Assembly (NCBI GenBank): GCA_049604415.1
Contig: JBMYTN010000006.1
Span: 65,107-129,106 of the forward strand
Source of the DNA: Rhodospirillaceae bacterium
GTDB lineage: Bacteria; Pseudomonadota; Alphaproteobacteria; Rhodospirillales; Rhodospirillaceae
Reading direction: 5' to 3'
Length of the DNA stretch: 64,000 bases
A model generated the notes under the pieces. That model saw only the letters and a list, made by a program, of their open reading frames with translations. It ran no database searches and was not told where the DNA came from. Of this stretch, positions 2 through 16,724 are shown one piece after another; positions within the stretch are counted from its first letter, which is position 1, and each line of letters opens with the position of its first letter. Made by a program: the position numbers and the translations under genes.

Positions 2-1435
2 ATGGCGACCTCGGCCCGGGAAGTCGAAACCCTGGTCGGCTCCTTGCGCAAATGGATTTTTGAGGATGCCCGGGCCGCAGATCTCCAGGCCATGGAGCGC
101 TTGGGCACAGGGCCGATTTATGCCGGTCTGACCCAGGAAACCCAGACCATTTCCCGCAATCTGCCGATCATGGTCATTGGCGCGCAGCAGATCGTCATGC
201 TGGTCTGTGTCGGGGCTTATATGGCGATCCTCTCCACCGAGGCCTTTTTCGCCGCTGTGGGCTTTTTGATCATCGCCGTGGTGGTGCATATCAAGCGGAT
301 GGAGGTCCACAATGCCCGCATGGTCGACGCCCATCGCGAGGAGGCCAAGGTCTTCGCCGGGCTGGGGCATTTGCTGGATGGCTTTAAGGAAATCCGTGTC
401 AGCCGCGCCCGGGCCGAGGGCGTCATGGGCGATTTGGCCTTGGCGTCGGGCTCGACCCGGGTGATCAAAACCCAAATCAAGGCCGGTTGGGCCTTTGAAT
501 TCGTCCTGTTCCAATTGGCGTTTTATCTGTTGCTGGCGATCATGGTTTTCGTGGTGCCGATGTTCACCGAGGATTTCCACGATGTGATCGTCCCGGCCTC
601 CACCGCAGCTTTGTTCATGATCGGCCCCGTTGGCGTGGTCGCCCAGGCGATCCCGATGCTGGCAGATTCCGACCGGGCGGTGCGCAATGTGGAAGCCCTG
701 CGCGCCCATTTGAAACAGGCCCTGGCCGAGGGCGAAGACGAGGCGGCAGAGGAGATTGAGGGCCCGTTGCGCTCGGTCCGTCTGGAGGACGCCACTTTCA
801 GCTATGTGGATGGCCAGGGCCGGACCGGCTTTTCCGTCGGTCCGCTATCGGCGACCTTCACGGCGGGCAGCATCACCTTTGTTACCGGCGGCAATGGGTC
901 AGGCAAATCGACCATGATGCGCCTGGTGACCGCTTTGGCCCGCCCGCGCGAAGGCAGCATGCTGGTCAATGACACGCCCTTAAGGCCCGGGCAGCGCCAA
1001 GATTATCGTGACCGGATCGGTGCGATCTTTTCCGACTTCCATTTGTTCCGCCGCGCCTATGGCCTAGAAGACTCCGATCCAGATCTGGTGGCCAAGCTGC
1101 TTGAGGAGTTTGGCCTAAGCAAAAAAACCCGCTTTGAAGACGGTGCCTTTTCCACCATTGATCTGTCCACTGGCCAGCGCAAACGCCTTGCCCTGATCCA
1201 GGTCATGCTGGAGGACAAGGAAATGGTCGTGCTCGACGAATGGGCCGCCGACCAGGACCCGACCTTCCGCAAACGGTTTTACGAGGACTTGCTGCCGGAG
1301 CTGAAGGCCCGGGGCAAGATCGTGGTCTGCGTCACCCATGATGACCGCTGGTTTGGCATCGCCGACCAGATCCTGCATATGGATTATGGCCGCTTTGTCA
1401 CCGAGGGTTGGGGCAGTGACGGGGCTGCCCCGTGA
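2..1435 (+). CDS. ABC transporter fused permease/ATP-binding protein, cyclic-peptide (SyrD/YojI-like) exporter family; 5'-partial, N-terminus lies upstream of the window
   Basis: ORF is open to the window edge. TM-rich N-part is followed by an NBD with Walker A GGNGSGKST, signature-like LSTGQRKRLALI and Walker B VVLDEWAAD. The stop overlaps the next start (GTGA). Confidence 0.75.
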   Translation: MATSAREVETLVGSLRKWIFEDARAADLQAMERLGTGPIYAGLTQETQTISRNLPIMVIGAQQIVMLVCVGAYMAILSTEAFFAAVGFLIIAVVVHIKRMEVHNARMVDAHREEAKVFAGLGHLLDGFKEIRVSRARAEGVMGDLALASGSTRVIKTQIKAGWAFEFVLFQLAFYLLLAIMVFVVPMFTEDFHDVIVPASTAALFMIGPVGVVAQAIPMLADSDRAVRNVEALRAHLKQALAEGEDEAAEEIEGPLRSVRLEDATFSYVDGQGRTGFSVGPLSATFTAGSITFVTGGNGSGKSTMMRLVTALARPREGSMLVNDTPLRPGQRQDYRDRIGAIFSDFHLFRRAYGLEDSDPDLVAKLLEEFGLSKKTRFEDGAFSTIDLSTGQRKRLALIQVMLEDKEMVVLDEWAADQDPTFRKRFYEDLLPELKARGKIVVCVTHDDRWFGIADQILHMDYGRFVTEGWGSDGAAP

Positions 1436-2395: not shown

Positions 2396-3169
2396 ATGCG
2401 ATGCATCATCTCTAGACTTTTGACCCTAGGTTCACTCATTGGTCTGATGGTTGGACTGGGCTCTGCCAGCGCCCAGGCGTCTGACTCCCTGCGGATTCTG
2501 ACGGAGATTTTGCCGCCCTACCAATTCCAGGACGAGGCCCAGGCTGATCCGGTTTTGAAGGGCATCTCGATCGAGATCGTCCAGGCCATCCAAGAACGGG
2601 TGGGCGATGAAACACCCCACGAGGTGCTGCCTTGGAGCCGGGCGCTGAAACTGGTGAAGAAGAATCCGAATACCTTCCTGTTCTCCACCGCCCGGACGCC
2701 GGAGCGCGAAGAACAATTCAAATGGATTGGACCTCTGGCGCCGTTGGAAATGGTGTTCTTCATCAAAAAGGGCTCCGGGGTTGAAATCACATCAATGGAT
2801 CAAGCCAAAACCATTGACCGGATTGGTGTGACCAAGAATGTCGCCACCCACGAGATTCTGACGGAGATGGGATTTGAAAATCTGGATGTGATGCAAAGCG
2901 GCTCGGACGACAAAAACATCTCGCGTCTTGTGAAGGGCCGCATCGATACGTGGCCGACCGCCTATTACGCCGGGATCTACAGCGCCCGGCTTTATGGTGA
3001 GCTTGACCAGATCGAGGTGGTTCCCAATGTGACCATTCTCTCCGGATCGCTCTATATCGCGGTCAATAAGGAAACCCCGGACGCTTTGGTGCAAAAATGG
3101 CAAGACGCGCTGGATGCCCTGCGCGCCGAGGGTGTCGTCGAGGCCATCACCGCCCGGTATGACCGGTAA
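2396..3169 (+). CDS. periplasmic solute-binding protein, family 3 (amino-acid/polar solute binding fold) with signal peptide
   Basis: N-terminal hydrophobic signal (LLTLGSLIGLMVGLGSASA). Size and residue pattern are typical of SBP_bac_3. It sits directly upstream of a sensor that itself contains an SBP_bac_3-like domain. Confidence 0.6.
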   Translation: MRCIISRLLTLGSLIGLMVGLGSASAQASDSLRILTEILPPYQFQDEAQADPVLKGISIEIVQAIQERVGDETPHEVLPWSRALKLVKKNPNTFLFSTARTPEREEQFKWIGPLAPLEMVFFIKKGSGVEITSMDQAKTIDRIGVTKNVATHEILTEMGFENLDVMQSGSDDKNISRLVKGRIDTWPTAYYAGIYSARLYGELDQIEVVPNVTILSGSLYIAVNKETPDALVQKWQDALDALRAEGVVEAITARYDR

Positions 3170-3175
3170 GGAGCG

Positions 3176-6100
3176 TTGATGACCCCCTCTGGGCGATCTT
3201 TTCCAGCCGGTAGCCTGGCACTGCTTGGCCCTGTGCTTAGCACCGTGATGGCGCGCAGCCTTATGGTGCTGATGGCGGTGCTGTGGCTGGGTATGGGCAC
3301 GCCTGGGGATGGTTTTGCCCAAACAACCGGATCGCCGGAGCAAACCCAAGCCAGCGCGGGTGACGCGCTCGCCGAAAGCCTCGCCCGATTTACCGCGCGC
3401 GCCATCTACAATCTGGACAATGACCAACTGCGCGCGGTTGTGGACCCCTTCCTGGAGCAGAATCAAAACATTAGGGGTTTGCGGGTCATCGAAAGCATCG
3501 ATGACGAGCTGATGCTCAGCTATTACCGCGATCTCGACAGCGGGGCAGTGGTTTTTGACGATGTCCTGCCGTCCAATGTGATGGAGTTGGACCGCTTCAG
3601 CGCCAAAAGCGTTTTTGAAGGCGAGGTGATCGGGACGATCCAGATCTGGGTCGAGGTCGCCAATGAGCTGGGTTTGACGCCTGCGGAACTGGCCTGGATC
3701 AGGGACAATCCGGTGATCCGGGTCCACAATGAGACCAATTGGCCGCCCTTCAATTTTGCCATTGGTGGCAACCCCAGGGGCCTATCCATCGATGTGATGA
3801 ACCTGCTGGCGGAAAAAACCGGCCTTCAGGTGGAGTATGTCACCGGTCCGAGCTGGAGTGACTTTTTGCAGATGATGCGGGCGGGCGAGTTGGACGTCAT
3901 GCTCAACATCGTCAAGACCGAAGAGCGGCAAACCTATCTGCTCTACACACCACCTTACATGTCCAACCCCAATGCGATCCTCAGCCGTCGAGATCAGCGT
4001 TTCACCGATGTGGAAAGCTTAAACGGCAAGACCGTCGCGGTGCCCAAAGGGTTCTTTTTTGAAGAGGTGCTGGCCCGGGATTATCCTGATATCAAGCTGC
4101 TTACCGTGGTTGATATTCTGGCCGGGATGAAGGCGGTGGCCTTTGGCGATGCCGATGCCGCCTTTGGCGAACTGGCGGTGCTGCAATATCTGCTGGCGGA
4201 AAACATGCTCGGCGATCTGGTGATCTCCGGCGAGGTTGAGCTGGGCAATCCGGAATATTCTCTGCTGAACATCGCCACCCGGATCGATAGCCCGGAGCTG
4301 GCTTCGATCCTGACCAAAGCAGTGCGGTCCCTGACACCGGAGACCATGGGACCGCTGCGGGACCGTTGGCTCACCTTTGGCAGCGAAATCGACGCCCAGG
4401 ATCCGGACGCTGGCAAAAGCCCGGCGGTGCTGGTCCAGGAACAATTGGCCCAGGAGACCCAGGCCAGCGCCTATCAGGATCTGCTGATCATCGTCATGGT
4501 CCTGGGCGGCATTCTGGTGGCCCTGTTGGTCCTGGGCCGCTTTGTCGCGAAGGGCAATCCGACCCGGCTTTATCGGTCTCGGCCGCTGTTGATCATGGGC
4601 GTTGGCGTGGTGCTGCTGGTGCTGGGCGGGGTTGTGGTCGGCACCAAATTGGCGCTGGATGTGCTGGAGCGCCAGACCCGGGACCGGATCGCAGGTAGTT
4701 TGATCACCACGGTGGATGGCCGACGCGCCCATGTGGAATCCTGGATCGGCCACCACCTTTTGGTGGGCAAGCAACTGGCCGAAGACCGAGAGCTGCGCCG
4801 GATCGCTATGGAGGTCGCCGAAAGCCCGGATCCGGCGGACAATCTCTATCGCCTGACCTCCTATTTCACGGATCTGGGGGTGGATCACTTTGTCTTTTTG
4901 GATGCCCAGGGCCAAACCTTGGTCGGCGATATTGTCGACAGCCATGCGGTGCCGCTCGACTGGCCGAAAGTGGCCCCCCGGGTGCTGCAAACCCTGGAAA
5001 CCGATCTGGCGCTGTTCCTGGGCACCATTAAGGTTTCGACCATCCAGCGTCCCTTGACCCGTCCGATGCCGTTTTTCTCCGTGCCCTTGCCGGGCGTGAG
5101 TTCCGCAAATGCGGAACAAGGCGGCGTGCCTCGGGTCCTGATCATCTCTGCGGCAGAGGGCGAACGCCTCAGCCGGATCATGGCCTTCGGCCAGCTGTTC
5201 TCCACCGGGGAGACCTACGCGTTCTCTGAAGATGGCTTGATGCTCAGCGCCAGCCGCTTTGGCGATCAATTGGTCGAGATGGGGCTGATCCGATCACCGG
5301 GGGATGAGGTGCTGAATTTGCGGGTGGCGGATCCGGAGGTCGACCTGACCACCGGGGCGCAAAGCCCCCTTGCGCCCGAAGACCGGACCTTGACCAAAAT
5401 GGTTCAATCCGCCCTCCGTGATGGCAGCGGCTTTGATGTCGATGGCACCGGCTATCGGGATTATCGCGGCGTGCCGGTGTTTGGTGCCTGGCAGTGGATC
5501 GCTTCCTCGCAAATTGGCATCACCACCGAAGTGGATGTGGCCGAAGCCTTAGGGCCTTATCAGGAAACCCGGCTGATCCTGCTGTCCTTGGTCGGCGGTG
5601 TGGTGGCCATCGGCCTGGGCTTGACCGGGGTCTCGATCTGGACCGGACGCAGTGCATCGCGCAATTTGTGGGTGGCCAATCAGGAACTGGAGCAGCGGGT
5701 GGAAGAGCGCGCCCAGGACGCGGTCACCAGCGAACGCCGGATGCGCGCCATCATCGACAATGCGGTCGATGGCATCATCACCATTGATGACCAAGGCACC
5801 GTCGAAGACTTTTCCGCCGCCGCCGGTCAGATCTTTGGCTATACGCCGCAAGAGGTCATCGGCCAGAACATCAAAATGCTGATGGCCCCAGAGATCGCCC
5901 GGGAGCATGACGGCTATCTGTCCGCCTATCGGGCGGGCGGGCGGCCCCATGTGGTGGGCAAAAACCGCGAGGTAACCGGGCGCAAAAAGGATGGCACCAC
6001 TTTCCCGATGGACTTGGCGGTGGGCGAAATCCTGATCGAGGGCCGGAAAACCTTCACCGGCATTGTCCGCGACATCAGTGCCCGGAAAAAGGCTGGCGAG

Positions 6101-7690
6101 GCGCTGACCCTATCCGAAGAGCGCACCCGGTTGATCCTGGAATCCGTCGGTGAAGGGGTGTTCGGGGTCGATCTGGACGGACGCATTACCTTCGTCAACC
6201 AATCGGCAGAAAAGCTGCTCGGCTTCCTGGCTCGGGAAATGATCGGCCAAAAAGCCCACCCGCTGTTCCACCATCACAGGCGGGATGGCTCGGTCTATCC
6301 GGTCCATGACTGTTGGATGTTCAAATCCTTCACCGAGGGCGAATCCTATCGGATCGACAATGAGGTGCTGTGGCGCAAGGACCGCAAGCCGTTGGAGGTG
6401 GAGTATTTCGCCACCCCAATCCGCAAGGATGGGGCCATTGTCGGGGCTGTGGTCTCCTTCTCCGACATCTCCAAACGCCGGGATGCGGAACGCAAGTTGA
6501 AACAGGCCTTCCGCCTGTCGCAAAAGACCCTGCGCGAGATGGATGCGGTGCTGGAAGCCATCGATTACGGCATTTGCTTCATGGACAAGGATCTGCGGGT
6601 CCGGGTGATGAACCAGGCCTTCATGACCCAATGGCATTTCGATCCGGATGTTTTGGCCGCCAAGCCGACCATGGAAGAGTTGATCCGGCGCAACCGCTAT
6701 AACGGTCTCTATTATCTGGCCGATCCATCAGACGACGACGCCTTTGATGTCTATGTCCAGGAACGGGTCGAGGCGGTGCGCGAGGGTGGGTTCCCGGCGG
6801 TGGAAATGACCCGGGCTGACGGCAAGGTGCTGATCTATCAGTGCTTCTCTTTGCCCGATGGCGAGCGGATGTTGACCTATTTCGACATTTCGGAGCAGAA
6901 GCAGGCCGAAGGCAAACTGAAGGACGCTTACGAGGTCATCTCCGGCTCGATCGATTATGCCGCCCGGATCCAACGCTCGGTCTTGCCCGATCCGGCCATG
7001 CTGCGGGCCTTCTTCACCGACCATTTCGTCATTTGGGAACCCCGCGATACGGTGGGCGGTGACATTTATTGGGCCAAGATGTGGAAGGACAGCATCCTGC
7101 TGATCCTCGGCGATTGCACCGGCCATGGGGTGCCCGGGGCGTTTATGACCCTGATCTCCTCCGGCGCCCTGGAGCGGGCGATGCTGGAATGCGTCTCCGG
7201 CGATCTCTCCCAACTGATCTCGGAACTGCACCGCTCGATCCAGATCACCTTGGGCCAGCATGGTGTTTCCGGGGAGTCCGATGACGGCCTGGAGCTTGGA
7301 GCCTGCCTGATCAGCCCGGATATGACGGAGATGACCTATGTCGGGGCTCGGTTCTCCTTGTTTATTGTTGAGGATGGGGCGGTCAGCGAGGTCAAAGGCA
7401 CCCGCAAAGGCCTGGGCTATCGCCGCACCCCGGCCTCGCAAACATTCGACGCTCACCGCATCGAGGTCCGCGACGGCATGCGGTTCTTTATGACCTCTGA
7501 CGGAATGATTGACCAAATTGGCGAAAAGACCCGCCGCAGCTATGGAAAGAAACGATTTATACAGTTATTACAGGAGGTGGGGGCGGATGAGATGAGTGAC
7601 CAGAAAGCCGCCATGCAGCACAGTCTGCAAATGTTCCAAGGACTCGAGCCACGCCGGGATGATGTATCCGTCATCGGGTTCAGATTATGA
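3176..7690 (+). CDS. multidomain membrane sensor Ser/Thr phosphatase, PP2C/SpoIIE (RsbU/SiaA-like). Domain order: periplasmic region - SBP_bac_3-like domain - TM - second sensor region - TM - 3x PAS - PP2C
   Basis: 1504 aa. Signal/TM at the N-terminus. SBP_bac_3-like segment (IRVHNETNWPPFNF...). Hydrophobic TM stretches around aa 455-510 and 795-815. PAS-like blocks (IIDNAVDGIITIDDQG..., LILESVGEGVFGVDLDG...). C-terminal SpoIIE/PP2C signature GGDIYW...LILGDCTGHGVPGAFMT. The stop overlaps the next start (ATGA). Confidence 0.8.
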   Translation: MMTPSGRSFPAGSLALLGPVLSTVMARSLMVLMAVLWLGMGTPGDGFAQTTGSPEQTQASAGDALAESLARFTARAIYNLDNDQLRAVVDPFLEQNQNIRGLRVIESIDDELMLSYYRDLDSGAVVFDDVLPSNVMELDRFSAKSVFEGEVIGTIQIWVEVANELGLTPAELAWIRDNPVIRVHNETNWPPFNFAIGGNPRGLSIDVMNLLAEKTGLQVEYVTGPSWSDFLQMMRAGELDVMLNIVKTEERQTYLLYTPPYMSNPNAILSRRDQRFTDVESLNGKTVAVPKGFFFEEVLARDYPDIKLLTVVDILAGMKAVAFGDADAAFGELAVLQYLLAENMLGDLVISGEVELGNPEYSLLNIATRIDSPELASILTKAVRSLTPETMGPLRDRWLTFGSEIDAQDPDAGKSPAVLVQEQLAQETQASAYQDLLIIVMVLGGILVALLVLGRFVAKGNPTRLYRSRPLLIMGVGVVLLVLGGVVVGTKLALDVLERQTRDRIAGSLITTVDGRRAHVESWIGHHLLVGKQLAEDRELRRIAMEVAESPDPADNLYRLTSYFTDLGVDHFVFLDAQGQTLVGDIVDSHAVPLDWPKVAPRVLQTLETDLALFLGTIKVSTIQRPLTRPMPFFSVPLPGVSSANAEQGGVPRVLIISAAEGERLSRIMAFGQLFSTGETYAFSEDGLMLSASRFGDQLVEMGLIRSPGDEVLNLRVADPEVDLTTGAQSPLAPEDRTLTKMVQSALRDGSGFDVDGTGYRDYRGVPVFGAWQWIASSQIGITTEVDVAEALGPYQETRLILLSLVGGVVAIGLGLTGVSIWTGRSASRNLWVANQELEQRVEERAQDAVTSERRMRAIIDNAVDGIITIDDQGTVEDFSAAAGQIFGYTPQEVIGQNIKMLMAPEIAREHDGYLSAYRAGGRPHVVGKNREVTGRKKDGTTFPMDLAVGEILIEGRKTFTGIVRDISARKKAGEALTLSEERTRLILESVGEGVFGVDLDGRITFVNQSAEKLLGFLAREMIGQKAHPLFHHHRRDGSVYPVHDCWMFKSFTEGESYRIDNEVLWRKDRKPLEVEYFATPIRKDGAIVGAVVSFSDISKRRDAERKLKQAFRLSQKTLREMDAVLEAIDYGICFMDKDLRVRVMNQAFMTQWHFDPDVLAAKPTMEELIRRNRYNGLYYLADPSDDDAFDVYVQERVEAVREGGFPAVEMTRADGKVLIYQCFSLPDGERMLTYFDISEQKQAEGKLKDAYEVISGSIDYAARIQRSVLPDPAMLRAFFTDHFVIWEPRDTVGGDIYWAKMWKDSILLILGDCTGHGVPGAFMTLISSGALERAMLECVSGDLSQLISELHRSIQITLGQHGVSGESDDGLELGACLISPDMTEMTYVGARFSLFIVEDGAVSEVKGTRKGLGYRRTPASQTFDAHRIEVRDGMRFFMTSDGMIDQIGEKTRRSYGKKRFIQLLQEVGADEMSDQKAAMQHSLQMFQGLEPRRDDVSVIGFRL

Positions 7691-8265
7691 GCGAGGGGCA
7701 AGGCATGCTGGCAAAGGACATGTATGACTTACGCAGCGATTTGGCAGAGCGCGGCGTCATGTTTTGCTACAGTGGGTTTATGACCGAGCAGGTGCTGACC
7801 GCCATTGGTTCAGCCCTGCGGACCAAATTGGAATTGGACAAGACGGATCGGCAGAGGGCGAAGAACCTGTTTTCGGTCTTTGTCGAACAGGTCCAAAACA
7901 TCATCCGTTATTCCGCCGAACGGGAAATCGGCGACAATGGCGACGAGGACAGCGACAAGGAACTGCGCTATGGCGTGCTTTCGGTGGGTCGCGAAGACCA
8001 AAGGCTGTTCGTCTCCTGCGGCAATCTGATCGTCCAGAAGGACGTGGATCGTCTGCGCAATTCCCTCGACCACATCAAGTCCTTGGATCGCAAGGCTTTG
8101 ATGAAACTCCATAAAGAGACCCTGCGCGGTGCCCGGCCTGAGGGCAGCAAAGGCGCGGGCGTCGGCTTTATTGATATCGCACGTCAAGCGTCGCACGGCT
8201 TTGATTTTGATTTCATGCCGATCAGCGACCAGCACTCCTATTTCTGCCTTAAGGCCTATCTCTGA
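7687..8265 (+). CDS. small GHKL-type Ser/Thr protein kinase, partner-switch kinase (SiaB/RsbW-like)
   Basis: 192 aa. N-box-like FVEQVQNIIRYS and G2-box-like GSKGAGVGFIDIAR resemble anti-sigma-factor-type HATPase kinases. It sits between a PP2C phosphatase and a DUF1987-like protein, the same position as siaB in siaABCD. Confidence 0.55.
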   Translation: MSEGQGMLAKDMYDLRSDLAERGVMFCYSGFMTEQVLTAIGSALRTKLELDKTDRQRAKNLFSVFVEQVQNIIRYSAEREIGDNGDEDSDKELRYGVLSVGREDQRLFVSCGNLIVQKDVDRLRNSLDHIKSLDRKALMKLHKETLRGARPEGSKGAGVGFIDIARQASHGFDFDFMPISDQHSYFCLKAYL

Positions 8266-8273
8266 GAGGACCC

Positions 8274-8666
8274 ATGGCCATGGACAGCATCCAAATCGCC
8301 GCCACACAGCGCACCCCAGACGTTCAATTCAACTTTGATGCCAATGAGTTTAGCATCACGGGCGAGTCCTATCCGGAGAACGTCACCGACTTCTATGGCT
8401 CCCTGATGGAAGCCTTGGAAACCCATCTGGAAAGCCAGGAGGGGGCGAAAGTCACCTTCAAATTCGAGCTGGTCTATATCAACAGTTCGACGGCCAAGAT
8501 CGTGATGGAAATCTTTGATCTGCTTGACCAGACCGGCGAGCGGGGCAATGAGGTGACCATCATCTGGCGCATCGAAGAAGAAGACGACAATATGCAGGAG
8601 CTGGGCGAGGAATTCGCCGAGGACCTGGAGTCGGTCACCTTCACCATTGAAACGTTCTCGGGCTGA
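8274..8666 (+). CDS. SiaC-like (DUF1987) partner-switch phosphoprotein
   Basis: 130 aa. Contains ITGESYPEN and the LVYINSSTAKIVMEIFDLLD block, which I recognise as the conserved core of DUF1987/SiaC proteins. Acidic C-terminus. Operon position matches siaC. Confidence 0.6.
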   Translation: MAMDSIQIAATQRTPDVQFNFDANEFSITGESYPENVTDFYGSLMEALETHLESQEGAKVTFKFELVYINSSTAKIVMEIFDLLDQTGERGNEVTIIWRIEEEDDNMQELGEEFAEDLESVTFTIETFSG

Positions 8667-8671
8667 CGCTT

Positions 8672-9715
8672 GTGGAAAACTCCAAGATCTTCAAACGCGA
8701 AGAAAAGATTGTCGCCGATGCCGAGGCCCTGCTGGCCTCGGATGCCTTGCCGGATGGCGAGGGGCGGGAGTCTTTTGACGCCTTGCTCAAGGCCTATCGC
8801 AAGCTGCTGCGCACGACGTCGAAGCTGGTGAAGATCTCGGACCGCAATGAGGCTGAACTGAACCGGGTCGCCAACACCCTTGATGAGAAGAGCACCATGC
8901 TCGAGGGGCTGTCACAGAACCTGTCAAAATATCTCTCGCCGCAGATTTATGATCAGATCTTCACCGGGGCTCAAGGGGTCGAGCTGAAAACGGCGCGGAA
9001 AAAGCTGACGGTGTTCTTCAGCGATTTGAAGGACTTCACCCAGACCACCGAGGATCTGCAGCCGGAAGATCTGACCTATTTGCTGAACAAATATTTCAGC
9101 GAAATGTCGAAGATCGCCCTGAAACATGGCGCCACCATCGACAAGTTCATTGGCGATGCGATGGTGATGTTCTTTGGCGATCCCAACTCCAAGGGGGTGT
9201 TGGAAGACGCCAAATCCTGTGTCCGCATGGCTATCGAGATGCAGCGGCGCATGGAGGATCTGCGCGAGATTTGGAACGCCAAGGGCTATGAGCATCCGTT
9301 CCAAATGCGCATTGGCATCAACACCGGCTTTTGCAATGTGGGCAATTTCGGCAGTGATGCCCGGATGGATTACACCATCATCGGCAACGAGGTGAATTTG
9401 GCCGCCAGGCTGGAAGGCAAGGCCGAGCCGGGCGGCATCCTGATGTCTTATGAAACCTACGCCCTGGTCCGCGACATTGTTCATGCGGAGCCGCGTGAGC
9501 CGATCCAGGTCAAGGGCATCCGCCGCGATGTGGTGCCCTATGATGTGCGCGGAATCCTTGAGGGCATGGACAGCTCCCGGCGTTTCCTGCGCCATGTGGA
9601 GGAGGGCGTTTTGATGGTGCTCGACCTCGACAAAATGAGTGTCGAAGACAAGCGCCGGACCTTAGAAAAGGTCGAAGGCATGGCCAGCCGCCTGAAGCAA
9701 GAGGTCGGGGAGTAG
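8672..9715 (+). CDS. class III nucleotidyl cyclase (CHD domain), probably an adenylate cyclase, with an N-terminal coiled-coil of about 100 aa
   Basis: KLTVFFSDLKDFT (metal-binding Asp), DKFIGDAMVMFFGDP (Lys before IGD suggests adenine specificity) and NEVNLAARLEG (transition-state Asn/Arg). GTG start 5 nt after the SiaC-like stop. An alternative internal ATG exists. Confidence 0.8.
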   Translation: MENSKIFKREEKIVADAEALLASDALPDGEGRESFDALLKAYRKLLRTTSKLVKISDRNEAELNRVANTLDEKSTMLEGLSQNLSKYLSPQIYDQIFTGAQGVELKTARKKLTVFFSDLKDFTQTTEDLQPEDLTYLLNKYFSEMSKIALKHGATIDKFIGDAMVMFFGDPNSKGVLEDAKSCVRMAIEMQRRMEDLREIWNAKGYEHPFQMRIGINTGFCNVGNFGSDARMDYTIIGNEVNLAARLEGKAEPGGILMSYETYALVRDIVHAEPREPIQVKGIRRDVVPYDVRGILEGMDSSRRFLRHVEEGVLMVLDLDKMSVEDKRRTLEKVEGMASRLKQEVGE

Positions 9716-9769
9716 GGGCGGCTGTCTCTATCGGTCTGCTGTCGGTCTGCGCGTCAGTCGCGCCGTCGG

Positions 9770-11890
9770 TCAGTCCTCTGCCAAATCACCAAAAAACTCT
9801 GAGCCGGGGGCCACGCCCGAGATCGTCAACCGCTCCCGAGCCCGGGTGCAGGCGACATAAAACAGCTGGCGTTCGGTTTCATAGACCTCATCCAGCTCCA
9901 CCTCATCGGCCACGGTTTCGATCCGGTCCTGATCGGGCAGCACCTCCTCGTCACAGGCCATCACCACCACATGGCGGAACTCCAGGCCCTTGGCCAAATG
10001 CATCACGCCAATGGCCACCCGCCCGGTGCGATCCTCAATGCGGTCGGACAGCTCAAGGGCCTGAGCCCCAGCCTCCTGAACCGCCGCGCGGGCCCGGGGC
10101 AGTTCGGTATCGGAGCGGACAAAGACCCCGATTTCCTCAGGCGGGATGCCCTCATCCAGGGTCTCAAACAAGGCCAGACCGATGGCGGTGATTTCGTCTT
10201 CGGGGCTGTCGGCCACATGCACCACGGGATCGGGACCGTTAAACACCGAGATCGTGCCGCGCCGGTCTTCCTCAATGCCGTCCACATCCCGCACCATGCT
10301 GGGCAACAGCCGATCCGCTGCGCGGCGGATCTGGTGCGAGGTGCGGTAATTGACCTTCAGGGTGTGGGAGCGCCCGCGAATATCGATCCCCAGCCCGAGC
10401 CAGGAAAACGGTTCCTGAAAAATCCGCTGGCCCAAATCGCCAGCAAAGAACAATGCGTCGGGGGTTTTCGGGGCAATGGCGGCCAGCATTTTCAGCGCCG
10501 GGACGCCCAAATCCTGTGCCTCATCGACCAGGATATGATCGAAGGGCTTGTCTGCTCGGTCTTTGTAATGGGCCGTGACCGCGCCAAACACCATGGCCGG
10601 GGTCAGGCTCATTTGGGCCTGTAAGCGCTCCCGGACCTCGGCAAACACCGGCCAGAGCCGTTCCCTCTGCTTGCTGCCCAGCCGGTTTTTCCGGCCCAGG
10701 CGTGGCACCCGGGCATAGGCCTCAAGGCTTTCGATCTGCCAGGCATCAACCACATGACGCCATTCGGACAGCAAGAACCGGTCGGTAAAGCCCTGCAGGC
10801 CTTGGGCTTCAGCGGCCTGGAGCAAGGTCGACCGCACGGTCTCCGGGCTGACGAGGCGCGGCTCATAGCCCTTGATCAAGGTGAACAGCTGCTGTGCGGC
10901 GCCGTCAAAGGGTGCGATGCTGACCCGGTCGGTCAGGATCTGGTCATTGCCGACCAGCAGCCGCAGCTTTTGCCGCAAGGCGTTGCAGAGCGGACTGGAA
11001 AAGCTGGTCAGCAGCAATTTGCTGGCCGGGGCGGTGCGCAGCAAATGGCTGGTCCGGTGCAAAGCCACCACAGTTTTGCCGGTGCCTGCGGATCCGGCAA
11101 TCCGAACCGGGCCGGAGGCGGGGGCCTCTACCAGTTTCTCCTGGTCCGGATGCAGAAAAATCGCCCAGCGATCCCAGGGCGCGTTCAGCGCGTTTTCCAG
11201 GGCCGCGACATTGTCCATGACCCGGAACCGTCGCAGGGCATCGGGATGGCTGAAGGGATCGATCCCCGGCAATTGCTGCTCCGGCGGGCGCAACACCCCG
11301 TCGGCGACATAGCCCAGCAGAGCTTCCATGGCTTCCGCCGGGATATGGTCTGCCAGATCGAGGAAATTGTTTTCCGAAGCATTGTGGACATCGCGCAGCC
11401 AGTCTTCCGGCACCCCGATGCCCAGCAGATCTTCCTCGGTCAATTGCAGGAACAGGGGCGGGTAATAGGGGTCTTGGTCCTCCTCGGCGGCCTCGGCCAT
11501 GGGCGGGGGCAGCGTCGATGTCGGGCCGTCGACGAAGGCCGGGCCGAAGATGGTCTCGACCCGCTCCCGGATTTCCACCAGCTGTGCGGCCCCGGTGCGC
11601 GGATGGGTGTCGATGCGCCGCCGCTCGGCCCAGCGATAGGCCGCGTCATGGTGATCGACATAGGCGATCAGGAAGCTGGACGCGGTTTTATGGACGATCA
11701 ACCGGATGTCGCGATTGACCCGCACCGACCAGAAATTCGGATCCTTGGCGTTTTCGATTCGATGAAACTTTAGGCCCGGATTGGAGGGGTCTTGCTGCAG
11801 GTCAAACACGGTCAGCTTGACCGCCTTTTGCGCCGCATTGGGCAGTTTGGCCAAGGCTGTCTGAAAGCTGTCGGCGAGCAGGAAGATCAT
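9770..11890 (-). CDS. UvrD/REP-family superfamily-I helicase with an N-terminal RelE/ParE-like (toxin-fold-like) domain
   Basis: Walker A GSAGTGKTVVALHR and C-terminal UvrD_C-like LFYVACTRARERLTISG. N-terminal 100 aa (PGLKFHRIENAKDPNFWSVRVNRDIRLIVHKTASSFLIAYVDHHDAAYRWA) matches the RelE/ParE toxin sequence pattern. Confidence 0.75.
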   Translation of the reverse strand: MIFLLADSFQTALAKLPNAAQKAVKLTVFDLQQDPSNPGLKFHRIENAKDPNFWSVRVNRDIRLIVHKTASSFLIAYVDHHDAAYRWAERRRIDTHPRTGAAQLVEIRERVETIFGPAFVDGPTSTLPPPMAEAAEEDQDPYYPPLFLQLTEEDLLGIGVPEDWLRDVHNASENNFLDLADHIPAEAMEALLGYVADGVLRPPEQQLPGIDPFSHPDALRRFRVMDNVAALENALNAPWDRWAIFLHPDQEKLVEAPASGPVRIAGSAGTGKTVVALHRTSHLLRTAPASKLLLTSFSSPLCNALRQKLRLLVGNDQILTDRVSIAPFDGAAQQLFTLIKGYEPRLVSPETVRSTLLQAAEAQGLQGFTDRFLLSEWRHVVDAWQIESLEAYARVPRLGRKNRLGSKQRERLWPVFAEVRERLQAQMSLTPAMVFGAVTAHYKDRADKPFDHILVDEAQDLGVPALKMLAAIAPKTPDALFFAGDLGQRIFQEPFSWLGLGIDIRGRSHTLKVNYRTSHQIRRAADRLLPSMVRDVDGIEEDRRGTISVFNGPDPVVHVADSPEDEITAIGLALFETLDEGIPPEEIGVFVRSDTELPRARAAVQEAGAQALELSDRIEDRTGRVAIGVMHLAKGLEFRHVVVMACDEEVLPDQDRIETVADEVELDEVYETERQLFYVACTRARERLTISGVAPGSEFFGDLAED

Positions 11891-12434: not shown

Positions 12435-15400
12435 ATGGGGACGACATTTTATGATCAGCCAATTCTGAACTCCCCTTACGAGGAGCCGTCTCGTCATCAC
12501 GCGCTGGATGATGAGGGGCAGCCAACAGATGATGAGCCGGTTCTCGGTCGACGGAAATCGGATCTTACAACCCCAATGGTCCCAGGCAATCGTCGTCAGC
12601 GGGCGAATGAGGCTGCAGGTCAAACATCTTTGGGTCTTGGGATTGACGCGGGCGATGAGGGAGATGATCAGCAATATGATCCAACCCCAATCATCAACGA
12701 AATTCGATCCAAGGTCGCGGAATGGCGAAGGCTCCCGAGTACCACGGATTGGGGTGTGACACCAGCAACAGCGCGCTTGTTGAAGCATTGGCGGGACTAT
12801 GACTATTCGGGTATTCGCCCCTTCTTTTGTCAAATCGAAGCGGTGGAAACGATTATCTGGCTGACAGAAGTCGCCCGGAAGCAAAAGACAGGCGGGCATT
12901 TCTGGCGTCATATTGAGAGCGCGAACAGGGTCGCAAACCCCGATTTGCTGCGGCTGGCTATGAAAATGGCGACTGGGTCAGGCAAGACCACGGTCATGGC
13001 GATGTTGATTGCATGGCAGACCGTGAATGCGGTGCGGTCACCCACAAGCAAGTTATTTTCTCGCGGTTTTTTAATTGTTTCGCCCGGCATTACGATCCGG
13101 GATCGCCTTCGCGTTCTCATGCCGAACGATCCGCAGGGCTATTACAAGACCCGTGAACTCGTCCCGGCCGACATGCTGGAAGACATCAATAAAGCAAAGA
13201 TTGTCATCACCAACTATCATGCTTTCCAACTCAAGGAACTGATGGACACCAACAAAGTTGGGCGATCTTTGTTACAAGGACGTGGTGAGGAGCTGAAGAC
13301 CAAAGAAAACGAAGGGCAGATGGTCCGTCGGGTTGCAGAAGAGCTCATGGGGATGAAGAACGTCGTCGTGATCAATGACGAGGCTCACCATTGCTATCGG
13401 GAGAAACCGGGCAATGATGACATCCAGGAGCTCAAAGGCGATGAAAAGAAAGCAGCCGAGGAGGAAAATAAGGCGGCGCGCCTTTGGATCAACGGCATCG
13501 AAGCCTTCAAAAAGAAACTTGGTGTTCGATTTGTTTTTGACCTTTCAGCCACACCCTTTTTTCTTAGCGGTTCCGGCTGGCGGGAAGGGGCATTGTTTCC
13601 CTGGACGGTGAGCGACTTTTCCCTGATCGATGCGATTGAGTGTGGCATCGTCAAGTTGCCTCGTGTTCCTGTGGCGGACAATGCACTGATCCCTGGCAAC
13701 GAAATGCCGGTCTACCGAGAACTTTGGAGGCATATCGGTAAGGAGATGCCCAAAAAGGGTCGGGGCAAAGGGGGGGGCGACGCAAATCCGATGGACATCC
13801 CGGACATGCTGAAAACCGCTCTGTTCGCGCTCTACAAACATTACGCGGAAACCTTTGAACAATGGAAACGAGCGGGGATTGAAACGCCGCCTGTTTTTAT
13901 CGTCGTGTGCAATAACACCTCGACGTCAAAATTGGTGCAGGAGTGGATATCGGGCTGGGAGCGGCCCAATGAAGACGACGAAATGGTCTTTGAACATAAT
14001 GGGCATCTGGAGCTCTTTCGGAACTACGACAACAATGGAATCCTGCTCCATAGGCCCAATACGCTTTTGATCGACAGCATGCAAATCGAAAGCGGAGAGG
14101 CGCTGGACGATAACTTTAAAAAGATTGCGGCCAAGGAAATTGAGCTCTTCCAACGCGAGCGGAAAGAACGCGGGGAGCACGGTGATATCACCGATAGCGA
14201 ATTGCTTCGCGAAGTCATGAATACTGTCGGCAAAAAAGGTCGACTGGGTGAGCAGGTCCGTTGCGTTGTTTCTGTCTCCATGCTGACGGAAGGGTGGGAC
14301 GCCAACACCGTGACACACATTCTGGGCATTCGCGCTTTCGGCACCCAGTTGCTGTGCGAACAGGTCGTGGGTCGGGCACTGCGCCGGTATTCTTATGACC
14401 TCAACGACGCCTCTCTGTTCAATGTCGAATACGCCGACATCATGGGGATTCCTTTTAATTTCACGGCCAAGCCGCAGGTCGCTCCGCCAAAACCGCCAAA
14501 AAAGACGGAACGGGTGATGGCCATGAAGGAACGCTCCAACCTAGAGATCATCTTTCCGCGCGTCGCGGGATATCGGGTTGACCTTCCGGAAGAACGATTG
14601 CCTGTCAAATTTACCGAGAACTCCAGCTACACCCTGACGCCCGAGGAGGTTGGTCCGGGTCAGGTGTTGATGGAAGGTATTGTCGGTGAAAGTGTTTTGA
14701 TCTCGGCGGGAGAAGCGCAGAAACTTCGCCTCAGCACCATTTCATTCAATCTCGCCAAACACGTCATGCTTAAATATTTCAAGGACGAGGATGGCGAGCC
14801 GAAGCTGCATCTGTTTGGCCAAATCAAGCGCATCGTCAGGCTATGGCTGGATGGCGGCTATTTCGAAGCCAAGGGTGATACCGGGACGTGGATGCTGGCC
14901 TCCTATCCGAATGTGCAAGCGCAAGCGGGGGAGAGGATTTACAATGCCATCGTCAATGGCATGAACGCCGAAGAGGAAGCCGGTGACCTGGAACCCCGCG
15001 TAAAAGCGGTTCTCGACCCTTATAATCCGAAGGGCTCAACCGCCCATGTCGGCTTCCAAACGACGAAATCTTTGTTCAAAACGTCGCCTGTCAAATGCCA
15101 CATAAACTATGTTGTGGCCGATAGTGGATGGGAAGATCAGTTCGCGATCGCCGCTGAAGCAAACCCCAAAGTCTTGTGTTATGTGAAAAACCAAGGGCTC
15201 GGCCTGGAGGTGCCATATAAGGATGGTTCGAATGCCAGGGTTTATATCCCGGATTTCATTGTTCAAATCGATGACGGCCATGGTTCCGACGACCCGTTAA
15301 ACCTGATCGTCGAGGTCAAGGGATATCGGAATGAAAACGTCAAGCTGAAATCTGAAACAATGAACACCCAATGGGTCCCTGGCGTGAACAACCTCGGCCA

Positions 15401-15536
15401 GTGGGGGCGGTGGGCCTTTGTCGAGTTCCAGGACGCTTGGTCGATGCCGAATGAATTTCAGGAGCTGATCGAAAAGTTTCTCGACAAAGTGATTGGCGAC
15501 TTCGTTGATCAGAATGCCGATGGGGAGGCTGCTTAG
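12435..15536 (+). CDS. Type III restriction enzyme Res-like subunit (SF2 helicase + C-terminal PD-(D/E)xK nuclease)
   Basis: 1033 aa. Walker A MATGSGKTTVMAM, DEAH box VINDEAHHC, helicase motif VI-like QVVGRALRR. C-terminal YIPDFIV...LIVEVKGY is a PD-ExK nuclease motif. AAGGGG Shine-Dalgarno upstream. Confidence 0.8.
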   Translation: MGTTFYDQPILNSPYEEPSRHHALDDEGQPTDDEPVLGRRKSDLTTPMVPGNRRQRANEAAGQTSLGLGIDAGDEGDDQQYDPTPIINEIRSKVAEWRRLPSTTDWGVTPATARLLKHWRDYDYSGIRPFFCQIEAVETIIWLTEVARKQKTGGHFWRHIESANRVANPDLLRLAMKMATGSGKTTVMAMLIAWQTVNAVRSPTSKLFSRGFLIVSPGITIRDRLRVLMPNDPQGYYKTRELVPADMLEDINKAKIVITNYHAFQLKELMDTNKVGRSLLQGRGEELKTKENEGQMVRRVAEELMGMKNVVVINDEAHHCYREKPGNDDIQELKGDEKKAAEEENKAARLWINGIEAFKKKLGVRFVFDLSATPFFLSGSGWREGALFPWTVSDFSLIDAIECGIVKLPRVPVADNALIPGNEMPVYRELWRHIGKEMPKKGRGKGGGDANPMDIPDMLKTALFALYKHYAETFEQWKRAGIETPPVFIVVCNNTSTSKLVQEWISGWERPNEDDEMVFEHNGHLELFRNYDNNGILLHRPNTLLIDSMQIESGEALDDNFKKIAAKEIELFQRERKERGEHGDITDSELLREVMNTVGKKGRLGEQVRCVVSVSMLTEGWDANTVTHILGIRAFGTQLLCEQVVGRALRRYSYDLNDASLFNVEYADIMGIPFNFTAKPQVAPPKPPKKTERVMAMKERSNLEIIFPRVAGYRVDLPEERLPVKFTENSSYTLTPEEVGPGQVLMEGIVGESVLISAGEAQKLRLSTISFNLAKHVMLKYFKDEDGEPKLHLFGQIKRIVRLWLDGGYFEAKGDTGTWMLASYPNVQAQAGERIYNAIVNGMNAEEEAGDLEPRVKAVLDPYNPKGSTAHVGFQTTKSLFKTSPVKCHINYVVADSGWEDQFAIAAEANPKVLCYVKNQGLGLEVPYKDGSNARVYIPDFIVQIDDGHGSDDPLNLIVEVKGYRNENVKLKSETMNTQWVPGVNNLGQWGRWAFVEFQDAWSMPNEFQELIEKFLDKVIGDFVDQNADGEAA

Positions 15537-16724
15537 GTGTCTCCTCGAAATGTCATAGAGGCACCAGAATTCTCGGAATTTGCCTTTGGCTTTTGCGTTA
15601 CTCAGGGGGTCGTAAATCTTCGCTTTGGTCAGTTTAGCCCATTTGGTGCTTCTGTCCGATTTGCCGCTCGGCACCGGGCAATACTATGGGATTGGGGTCA
15701 TTTGCACTATGAGTTGATACATGATTTTGGTCTTAGTCCGAAACAAGCCCGAGCCGTGCTCAACGAAACAGGTGCTCCCTTCCATCCGACGCAGAGTCAA
15801 GAAGCTACCTTCCCGATTGATGTCGCTATGACGAGCAACGGGGTCGCGTGCTTCTTTCAGTATAAGCGATGTGACTGCGTGACTGGCTCCCATAGCTCTT
15901 TGACTGAAGTAACGCAGGGAAGCTTTAGCAGCTTAGAGAAGCCATTCTATCGAGTGAATTTCAAGTGGACGGCACCTAATCCAAAAAAACCAAACTGTGG
16001 CGGTGATTTTAATCAGAGAGAGCAATTAGAGAGACTAGAAAACGCGTTATCCCATATTCCTTCAGCGTTGGTCCGCTATGTGGTCCCGGCATTCCATAAA
16101 TCGGAAGAGTTGGATATCGTTCAACAGGATGGCGTCGCTGCGCGATCAGATGGAGAACCGCTTGTCCTTTGTTTTCCAGCCAGCGCATTTTCGTTGCCTG
16201 CGGGGACAAATCACCATGTGAGCTTCGATAGAGCCTGCACCGCTTTTCGGCATTCCAAAGGGTCAGAGCCAGTGCAAGGATTTAGCCCGCTTGAAGACGA
16301 AATTGAGCGCTCGTCCGAAGAAACCAAACAGCCAGTGTTCAAGACCATACATAGTCTGCGCAAGGACCTTGATGCGTTTGCATCGAATTTAGGCGTTCCG
16401 GATCCGCCGGAACAGATCGATGATCAAAATTTGCTTCGGTTCTTTGGGATATGGCCTCGCCGCAAGCCCCGCGCATCAGATCAAGATTACTTGCGATTTT
16501 TTGCCGACGTCGAAGAGACACCGACAGAGATTTCGGACCTGTCGACAGGCCTCCGCAAGCTCTTAAAGCAACCGCTCGACAAATCACTCGTTGCTCTAAA
16601 GAATTATTCGCCCATGTCTTTTGTGGAAGATTGGTTTGCTGCGGATTTTCGCTGCCGACAGATCATTGGGCAGCCCTTGGGGGTAAACATAATGAGCTTA
16701 GGGGGCGGGCAAAATGGCGCGTAA
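15537..16724 (+). CDS. hypothetical protein encoded between Res-like and Mod-like genes (no recognisable motifs)
   Basis: 395 aa. GTG start immediately after the Res stop and 3' end overlapping the Mod start by 11 nt, so it is translationally coupled within the operon. AT-richer codon usage than the flanking genes. Confidence 0.5.
   Translation: MSPRNVIEAPEFSEFAFGFCVTQGVVNLRFGQFSPFGASVRFAARHRAILWDWGHLHYELIHDFGLSPKQARAVLNETGAPFHPTQSQEATFPIDVAMTSNGVACFFQYKRCDCVTGSHSSLTEVTQGSFSSLEKPFYRVNFKWTAPNPKKPNCGGDFNQREQLERLENALSHIPSALVRYVVPAFHKSEELDIVQQDGVAARSDGEPLVLCFPASAFSLPAGTNHHVSFDRACTAFRHSKGSEPVQGFSPLEDEIERSSEETKQPVFKTIHSLRKDLDAFASNLGVPDPPEQIDDQNLLRFFGIWPRRKPRASDQDYLRFFADVEETPTEISDLSTGLRKLLKQPLDKSLVALKNYSPMSFVEDWFAADFRCRQIIGQPLGVNIMSLGGGQNGA

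Follow-up and report, generated by a model that had tools for sequence, protein, structure and literature searches.

The window analysed here, a stretch of 64,000 nucleotides (nt) from a Rhodospirillaceae bacterium (assembly GCA_049604415.1, contig JBMYTN010000006.1, positions 65,107 to 129,106 of the forward strand), encodes four consecutive genes that appear to form a SiaABC-type partner switch with a predicted adenylate cyclase as its output enzyme. This assignment is well supported by computation, and the probability that the genes constitute a SiaABC-type partner switch with synthesis of cyclic AMP (cAMP) as output is put at about 0.65. In order, the genes encode a PP2C-type sensor phosphatase, a small kinase of the SiaB family, a SiaC-like (DUF1987) adaptor and a class III cyclase, and all four products are intact. 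No description of a class III cyclase controlled by SiaC or another DUF1987 protein was found in a full-text literature search that was thin on subscription journals, in agreement with a preliminary description of this DNA which had called the pairing undescribed. An eLife paper suggests, in general terms only, that DUF1987 proteins modulate adjacent proteins.

The point of comparison is the SiaABCD system of Pseudomonas aeruginosa (PA0172-PA0169), with which the window shares the order of phosphatase, kinase, adaptor and output, the tight packing of the genes, homologous SiaB and SiaC proteins, the PP2C catalytic residues, the phospho-acceptor position of the adaptor (a Ser in the window) and an output that is a dimerisation-dependent nucleotide cyclase with a helical N-terminal stalk bearing an 'ISDR' motif. 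The two systems differ in that the output in the window is a class III cyclase with a cyclase homology domain (CHD), and hence a predicted source of cAMP, whereas SiaD is a GGDEF enzyme that produces cyclic di-GMP (c-di-GMP). The stalk carries one motif where SiaD has two, the adaptor has a Ser in place of Thr68 of SiaC, and the sensor is a protein of 1504 amino acids (aa) with an SBP_bac_3 domain, a second periplasmic domain, four membrane segments and three PAS domains, whereas SiaA is a HAMP-PP2C protein of 663 aa. The preliminary description had matched both the order and the sizes of the genes to siaA-siaB-siaC-siaD; the order and the sizes of SiaB and SiaC agree, but those of the sensor (1504 against 663 aa) and the output (347 against 275 aa) do not. 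The four open reading frames it had described are all present on the plus strand (Table 1), and its domain assignments (phosphatase, GHKL-type kinase, DUF1987/SiaC and cyclase) were all confirmed by profile hidden Markov model (HMM) and solved-structure matches far above thresholds. Since matches were obtained at family level for SiaB, SiaC and PP2C, whereas the equivalog cutoffs were not reached and the output is not a GGDEF protein, the system is best regarded as a variant of the SiaABC partner switch and not as SiaABCD.

The fourth gene product matches PF00211 at 8e-28 over aa 110-289 (97.7 bits versus 21.9), with no match to GGDEF in Pfam. Its closest solved relative is the catalytic domain of P. 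aeruginosa CyaB (PDB 3R5G; 2e-67 by sequence), which is also the top Foldseek match of the AlphaFold2 model of the cyclase (TM score 0.92, 56% identity over the structural alignment), a model with a mean pLDDT (predicted local distance difference test) of 85.6. Alignment with CyaB and with Spirulina CyaC identifies D118 and D162 as metal ligands, K158 (within 'DKFIGD') and T235 (within 'DYTIIG') as the residues of adenine recognition, and N242 and R246 as those acting on the transition state; none of the six varies among 54 aligned homologues. A Thr in place of the class IIIa Asp marks subclass IIIb in the Linder and Schultz classification, and the adenylate cyclase CyaC has the specificity pair K1057/T1139. 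A hydropathy scan found no hydrophobic segments in the protein, which, judged by its sequence, is a soluble class IIIb adenylate cyclase. With all six catalytic and specificity residues invariant, the enzyme is predicted to be active as a homodimeric adenylate cyclase, and guanylate specificity is unlikely; the latter was weighed and discarded in view of the Lys/Thr pair. The earlier claim of a CHD cyclase in place of a GGDEF enzyme, with adenylate-type residues (Lys before IGD), is therefore borne out and refined to class IIIb by Lys158/Thr235. Between the stalk and the catalytic domain lies a short helix with a conserved 'LSKYLSPQIYDQIF', which is similar to the transducer element found in class III cyclases. 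The C-terminal extension has the consensus RF.R.E..G..LFLD.DKL across the cyclase family, and its sole match is a sub-threshold one to SepF (E 0.002). A 312-aa fragment identical to the window cyclase is on record from a Rhodospirillaceae metagenome-assembled genome (MAG), and no entry for the window's own SiaC was found in the assembly index.

The kinase matches DUF6272 in Pfam at 2.7e-41 and the NCBIfam model NF038262 ('SiaB family protein kinase') at 189 bits against a cutoff of 85, and its alignment with the solved P. aeruginosa SiaB (6KKO_A) spans 182 aa at 1e-20. The Glu predicted to be catalytic (E61 in P. aeruginosa, within 'YIEMTQN'; PMC7647112) is kept as 'FVEQVQN', as is a glycine-rich 'GAGVGFIDIAR' loop (ATP-lid motif), and from these features the protein is assigned as a SiaB-family serine/threonine kinase. 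The adaptor, for which a DUF1987 identity had been proposed, matches PF09345 (SiaC) at 3e-40 (137 bits against a gathering score of 24.5) and the solved SiaC (6K4F/6KKO_C) at 2e-19, and contains the string 'ITGESYPEN'. Its predicted phospho-loop, N70-S71-S72 (nt 8481-8489), aligns with N67-T68-S69 at the start of helix alpha-2 in P. aeruginosa, which makes Ser71 the counterpart of the SiaC phospho-acceptor Thr68. This replacement is not an isolated one, as the position is a Ser in the SiaC proteins of all 80 related loci considered below. Among the 14 SiaC residues listed as contacting SiaD (PMC8457831), 10 are identical in the adaptor, compared with 41 of 126 (33%) overall (hypergeometric p ~0.002).

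The sensor carries at its C-terminus a SpoIIE/PP2C domain (PF07228, aa 1305-1503, nt 7088-7684; 1.8e-17, 64 bits against a threshold of 25), and its last 264 aa match the NCBIfam SiaA model at 2e-60. The PP2C metal-binding motifs GGD, GDCTGHG, SDGMIDQ and RRDD are all kept with respect to P. aeruginosa SiaA, and equivalents of the metal-site residues seen in the crystal structure of the SiaA PP2C domain, D457, D474, G477, D600, G601 and D653 (PMC7647112), are all conserved. Upstream of this domain, Pfam identifies an SBP_bac_3 domain at aa 181-399 (nt 3716-4372; 7e-21) and three cytoplasmic PAS regions at aa 855-1245 (nt 5738-6910; best 5e-36). A hydropathy scan places hydrophobic segments at aa 14-42, 430-460, 468-498 and 797-823, an arrangement that implies periplasmic locations for aa 43-430 (which include the SBP domain) and for aa 499-796, and a cytoplasmic tail of three PAS domains and PP2C. 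No Pfam family was matched by the second periplasmic region, some 300 aa between membrane segments 3 and 4 (aa 499-796, nt 4670-5563), or by the roughly 140 aa that precede the SBP domain (aa 43-180, nt 3302-3715); both gave only sub-threshold CHASE4/Cache (dCache) hints, with E values of 0.06-0.13.

The predicted point of contact between adaptor and cyclase is the N-terminal stalk of the latter. In the SiaC-SiaD structure, four SiaC molecules sit on two repeated motifs of the parallel stalk helices of the SiaD dimer, where T68 inserts between the helices and bonds with S82 and Q86, or with S50 and Q54 at the other motif, and T68 phosphorylation abolishes binding (PMC8457831). In the SiaD sequence, taken from a P. 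aeruginosa contig, these motifs read 'LERIARISDGFQSM' and 'LEKVARISDRYQQM'. The long N-terminal helix of the cyclase bears 'KLVKISDRNEAEL', which aligns in register with its SiaD stalk counterpart 'KVARISDRYQQM'. The cyclase motif is in register with residues 76-89 of SiaD ('KVARISDRYQQMMR'), such that S56 pairs with S82 and E60 with Q86; it corresponds to the proximal SiaC-binding motif of SiaD and sits within a single 57-residue helix of the AlphaFold2 model. Kinship with SiaD is visible only through direct comparison with the SiaD sequence: cyclase residues 31-74 align with SiaD 57-100 by pairwise BLASTP at E 7e-4, a value that holds for a two-sequence comparison only, and an HMM built from the cyclase stalk covers residues 64-98 of SiaD at 12.5 bits (E 6e-6 at Z=1). 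Among 115 full-length homologues of about 55-75% identity, S56 and D57 are conserved in 100%, R58 in 97%, E60 in 98% and L63 in 99%, and these are the best-conserved positions of the cyclase N-terminus. The string 'LLASDAL' (aa 20-26) was considered as a second motif and rejected, being located in a loop and not conserved. That the N-terminal extension may be the SiaC docking site had been anticipated in the preliminary description, and is supported by the in-register SiaD motif, by its invariance in the family and by its recurrence in each class of output found beside SiaC.

The linkage of this cyclase to SiaB and SiaC is conserved. A scan with a SiaC alignment over one genome per GTDB species returned at least 230 loci, and the best 80 of these were surveyed for CHD partners of DUF1987 homologues, as had been suggested. 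A cyclase of the window type follows SiaC in 38 of the 80 loci, a soluble histidine kinase of about 350 aa in 21, a GAF-HD-GYP protein in nine, a GGDEF protein in five and a PP2C protein in two, while four loci are orphans with no same-strand output gene and one ends at the contig boundary; the set is skewed toward relatives of the window SiaC, so these fractions are not family-wide frequencies. The cyclase loci occur in Alphaproteobacteria (Rhodospirillales, Methyloceanibacter, Microvirga and Ruegeria) and also in Betaproteobacteria (Limnohabitans), Gammaproteobacteria, Magnetococcales and Desulfovibrionales. The cyclase has numerous full-length relatives (about 340 aa, 97% coverage), which come from Rhodospirillales, Terasakiella, Magnetospira, Magnetococcales, Desulfovibrio/Pseudodesulfovibrio and Roseospirillum, and in six of the six homologues looked up the DUF6272 and SiaC genes lie directly upstream. 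The complete order of an SBP_bac_3/PAS/SpoIIE sensor, SiaB, SiaC and cyclase recurs in one Desulfovibrio genome and one SRA assembly. Cultured carriers of the cluster include Ruegeria atlantica, Microvirga massiliensis, Limnohabitans, Magnetospira sp. QH-2, Roseospirillum parvum and Terasakiella. The arrangement of SiaC and cyclase is a widespread feature of the family and not peculiar to this window, and chance adjacency of the genes was rejected on the conserved synteny. Some loci depart from the usual layout. In a Granulosicoccaceae MAG (L044:6687-8864) the order is PP2C, SiaC, SiaB and cyclase, with kinase and adaptor swapped and the cyclase still linked. Two gammaproteobacterial MAGs (L033:7393-8688 and L039:1190-2491) encode a longer SiaC-linked cyclase of 431-433 aa, which in L033, the one of the two scanned with Pfam, carries a C-terminal 'sugar diacid recognition' domain (PF05651).

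The stalk is not confined to cyclases. A motif of the form '(R/K)(R/K)L(V/M)(R/K)(L/M/I/V)SDR..' occurs about 55-65 residues from the predicted start in nearly all genes downstream of SiaC, whatever their catalytic domain, including the HD-GYP, GGDEF and histidine-kinase genes. When the first 105 residues of the cyclase were searched against 1.84 billion representative proteins, 184 clusters were obtained at E <= 0.001. In a domain census of 66 of the matches (at least 230 aa, with N-terminal alignment), HATPase_c was found in 27, of which 25 also have HisKA and 15 a receiver domain, GGDEF in 19, a cyclase domain in 17 and SpoIIE in two. The N-terminal module has the consensus Y..LL..Y.KL.....RLVR.SDR....LN, and E9, Y41 and D56 reach at least 90% across output classes. 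The balance of this evidence tips slightly towards an N-terminal module of about 70 residues (the short helix plus the stalk helix) that would serve as a general 'SiaC receiver', fused to at least four kinds of output: class III cyclases, GGDEF proteins, GAF-HD-GYP proteins and soluble or hybrid histidine kinases. The soluble histidine kinases (about 350 aa, HisKA/HATPase_c, stalk motif 'RLVRVSDRLQ') follow SiaB-SiaC in Azospirillum, Magnetospirillum and relatives (L030:4227-5297, L040:7399-8448, L051:7395-8453, L063:7398-8444, L079:7405-8451 and 16 more), which suggests that a Ser/Thr partner switch may feed a two-component phosphorelay. Two stalk-bearing outputs can stand beside a single SiaB-SiaC pair: a cyclase with an HD-GYP protein in Magnetospira, with a histidine kinase in Roseospirillum and Terasakiella, and with a hybrid kinase in L017 and L075. 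One adaptor might in such cases drive both outputs, for example cAMP synthesis together with c-di-GMP hydrolysis. Coordinates of two-output loci are L001:5927-7990 and 8001-9035, L003:8001-9074 and 9104-9970, and L085:7001-8029 and 8029-9036, with further examples at L017:8557-10737, L075:8436-10607 and L050:2915-4960. No second stalk-bearing protein is encoded in the 64-kb window.

A mechanism can be proposed on this basis. The sensor would read periplasmic ligands, through its SBP domain and second periplasmic domain, and cytoplasmic cues, through its three PAS domains, and these inputs would jointly set the activity of the C-terminal PP2C phosphatase. The phosphate on Ser71 of the adaptor would be added by the SiaB-family kinase and removed by PP2C. 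Unphosphorylated SiaC would dock as a pair at 'ISDRNE' on the two parallel stalk helices of a cyclase dimer, stabilising the stalk and, through the short transducer helix, a competent class IIIb catalytic dimer that makes cAMP, whereas phospho-SiaC could not bind and the cyclase would return to its inactive state. Binding of SiaC to the cyclase, and activation rather than inhibition as its consequence, are read across from SiaABCD, as the direction of ligand control would be; a 2:2 complex would be the natural prediction from one copy of the motif.

Several observations weigh against this proposal. The NCBIfam equivalog models for SiaA, SiaB and SiaC score 205 against a cutoff of 700, 105.5 against 225 and 93.8 against 150, so that sensor, kinase and adaptor are family-level relatives (paralogous members) and not orthologues of the Pseudomonas proteins. 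Two of the SiaD-contact positions are changed in the adaptor (I71 to A and R103 to N), and a second SiaC-binding motif was looked for in the cyclase stalk and is absent, leaving one copy against two in SiaD; geometry and stoichiometry may consequently differ from those of SiaC and SiaD. Similarity of the stalk to SiaD is weak outside the motif, and SiaD was not among the matches when the cyclase N-terminus alone was searched by sequence against the whole PDB. Activation of SiaD involves a change from pentamer to dimer, for which a CHD enzyme may have no counterpart. CyaB and other class IIIb cyclases also respond to bicarbonate, so SiaC need not be the sole input. The literature searched yielded no binding or activity data for any member of the cyclase family.

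Some room is left for a switch of opposite sign, in which unphosphorylated SiaC would hold the cyclase inactive, for example in a non-productive register, and phosphorylation would free the active enzyme. Nothing computed fixes the sign, the single motif and changed contact residues allow another geometry, and shifts of coiled-coil register can switch class III cyclases either way. We nevertheless regard this as unlikely, given that a CHD, like GGDEF, needs a head-to-tail dimer, for which stabilisation of the stalk is the simpler path to activation, and that the sole characterised SiaC is an activator that stabilises a productive parallel dimer (PMC8457831). Less credible, and quite improbable in our judgement, is an arrangement without direct contact, in which SiaC would target something elsewhere in the genome and the cyclase would be regulated independently, by bicarbonate or through its C-terminal extension. 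The extension is indeed conserved and uncharacterised, the closest solved relative, CyaB, is reportedly bicarbonate-responsive, and the four orphan loci among the 80 indicate that SiaC can act at a distance. However, such independence fits poorly with a linkage that recurs across several phyla (38 of 80 and six of six loci), with a stalk motif that is invariant in the family and common to the experimentally mapped SiaC site of SiaD, with a stalk module that heads four unrelated output domains precisely when these follow SiaC, and with the lack of any other stalk-bearing protein encoded in the window. A product other than cAMP, such as cyclic GMP, is very improbable indeed: although PF00211 spans adenylate and guanylate cyclases and a fairly close solved relative, Cya2 (2W01), is described as a guanylyl cyclase, Lys158/Thr235 are as in CyaC and CyaB and not of the Glu/Cys-Gly guanylate type, are invariant in the 54 homologues and lie in a catalytic domain 56% identical, over the structural alignment, to that of the cAMP-forming CyaB.

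Several other known systems resemble the unit in part. CyaB (PA3217, class IIIb) shares the Lys/Thr specificity pair and catalytic residues with the window cyclase. It is a membrane protein, anchored through MASE2 at its N-terminus, and is under the control of the Chp/Pil system. The window cyclase, unlike CyaB, is soluble and has a SiaC-type stalk and a 50-aa C-terminal extension. The phytochrome-linked cyclase 6FHT and the photoactivated cyclases bPAC and OaPAC likewise combine a long parallel helical linker and a short transducer helix with a homodimeric CHD, and 6FHT aligns from cyclase residue 66, linker included; in those proteins the sensor is fused in cis, whereas in the window the signal would arrive in trans through a phospho-regulated adaptor. 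In STAS partner switches (HptB-HsbR-HsbA/HsbD of P. aeruginosa and BgrSTUWV/BgrR of Sinorhizobium), as in the window, a phosphatase and kinase toggle a small STAS-like adaptor on a second-messenger cyclase (PMC8457831). These switches differ from the window in using canonical STAS adaptors and GGDEF outputs, and none with a class III adenylate cyclase was found in the literature searched.

The positions of the genes and of the cyclase elements are collected in Table 1.

Table 1. Genes of the signalling unit and elements of the cyclase, with positions in the window.
Feature	Position (nt)	Residues (aa)	Strand	Basis or remarks
Separate periplasmic solute-binding protein	2396-3169		+	257 aa; SBP_bac_3; hydrophobic N-terminus
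siaA-like sensor phosphatase	3176-7690		+	1504 aa; likelier ATG start at 3179
siaB-like kinase	7687-8265		+	192 aa
siaC-like adaptor	8274-8666		+	130 aa
Class III cyclase	8672-9715		+	347 aa; GTG start
Cyclase, short helix		5-22	+	AlphaFold2 model
Cyclase, long stalk helix (57 residues)	8759-8929	30-86	+	AlphaFold2 model
Cyclase, predicted SiaC-docking motif 'SKLVKISDRNEAEL' on stalk	8819-8860	50-63	+	Conservation among homologues; alignment with SiaD
Cyclase, transducer-like short helix with conserved 'LSKYLSPQIYDQIF'		90-98	+	AlphaFold2 model
Cyclase, catalytic domain	8990-9556	107-295	+	AlphaFold2 model; PF00211
Cyclase, conserved C-terminal extension (~50 aa)	9557-9712	296-347	+	AlphaFold2 model: beta-hairpin and helix

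The genes of the unit are tightly packed. The siaA- and siaB-like genes share 4 nt (ATGA), siaB and siaC lie 8 nt apart and have a GAGGA ribosome-binding site between them, and a 5-nt gap separates siaC from the cyclase gene. The four genes had been described as translationally coupled, which is upheld as regards tight spacing on one strand, but a true overlap exists at the first junction only. Within the four-gene block, a terminator scan found no terminator-like sites above shuffle expectation and a promoter scan found no sigma-70-like promoter (0 promoter-like sites). The gene for a separate, free solute-binding protein (SBP) stops 6 nt upstream of the sensor gene, and is itself preceded by the sole intergenic gap of any size (2269-2395), so that this gene may head a five-gene operon. 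Its membership in the signalling system is uncertain; the free SBP and the SBP domain of the sensor are distant relatives only, not close paralogues, and two related loci that could be read at the position preceding the sensor gene have no free SBP gene there. The GC content dips to 0.54-0.56 across siaB, siaC and the cyclase gene (7500-9500), against 0.58-0.63 in the sensor gene and flanks, and the cassette of kinase, adaptor and output might have been acquired separately.

Downstream, the unit is closed by a convergent UvrD-like helicase gene (9770-11890, minus strand), whose product has a faint N-terminal HigB-like match. Beyond it, a plus-strand block (12435-19686) of low GC content (~0.52 against ~0.62 nearby) encodes a ResIII helicase/endonuclease (1033 aa), a 395-aa protein and an N6_N4 DNA methylase (990 aa); this block looks like a restriction-modification or defence island. 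Upstream of the unit, positions 2-2268 carry a partial gene for an ABC-transporter ATPase (477 aa) and a gene for a type II thioesterase-like protein (278 aa), neither of which is likely to be related to the signalling genes.

The regulation of class III adenylate cyclases in bacteria is commonly ascribed to sensor domains fused in cis or to small molecules, such as bicarbonate. An adaptor that acts in trans under the control of Ser/Thr phosphorylation would give cAMP signalling an input logic of another kind, and would extend the SiaABC paradigm, known only for the control of c-di-GMP and biofilm formation in Pseudomonas, to a second messenger with other targets. The comparative data yield predictions at the level of single residues, namely Ser71 of SiaC and Ser56, Asp57 and Glu60 of the cyclase. 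If the stalk is indeed a general receiver for SiaC, one Ser/Thr partner switch could be plugged into cAMP, c-di-GMP or phosphorelay signalling, and the operon in the window would represent the variant for cAMP, in which a periplasmic solute sensor acts on this messenger by way of serine phosphorylation. The occurrence of one stalk in four output classes suggests a portable docking module that lacks annotation, and its recognition would improve the annotation of several hundred signalling proteins that are labelled by their catalytic domain alone.

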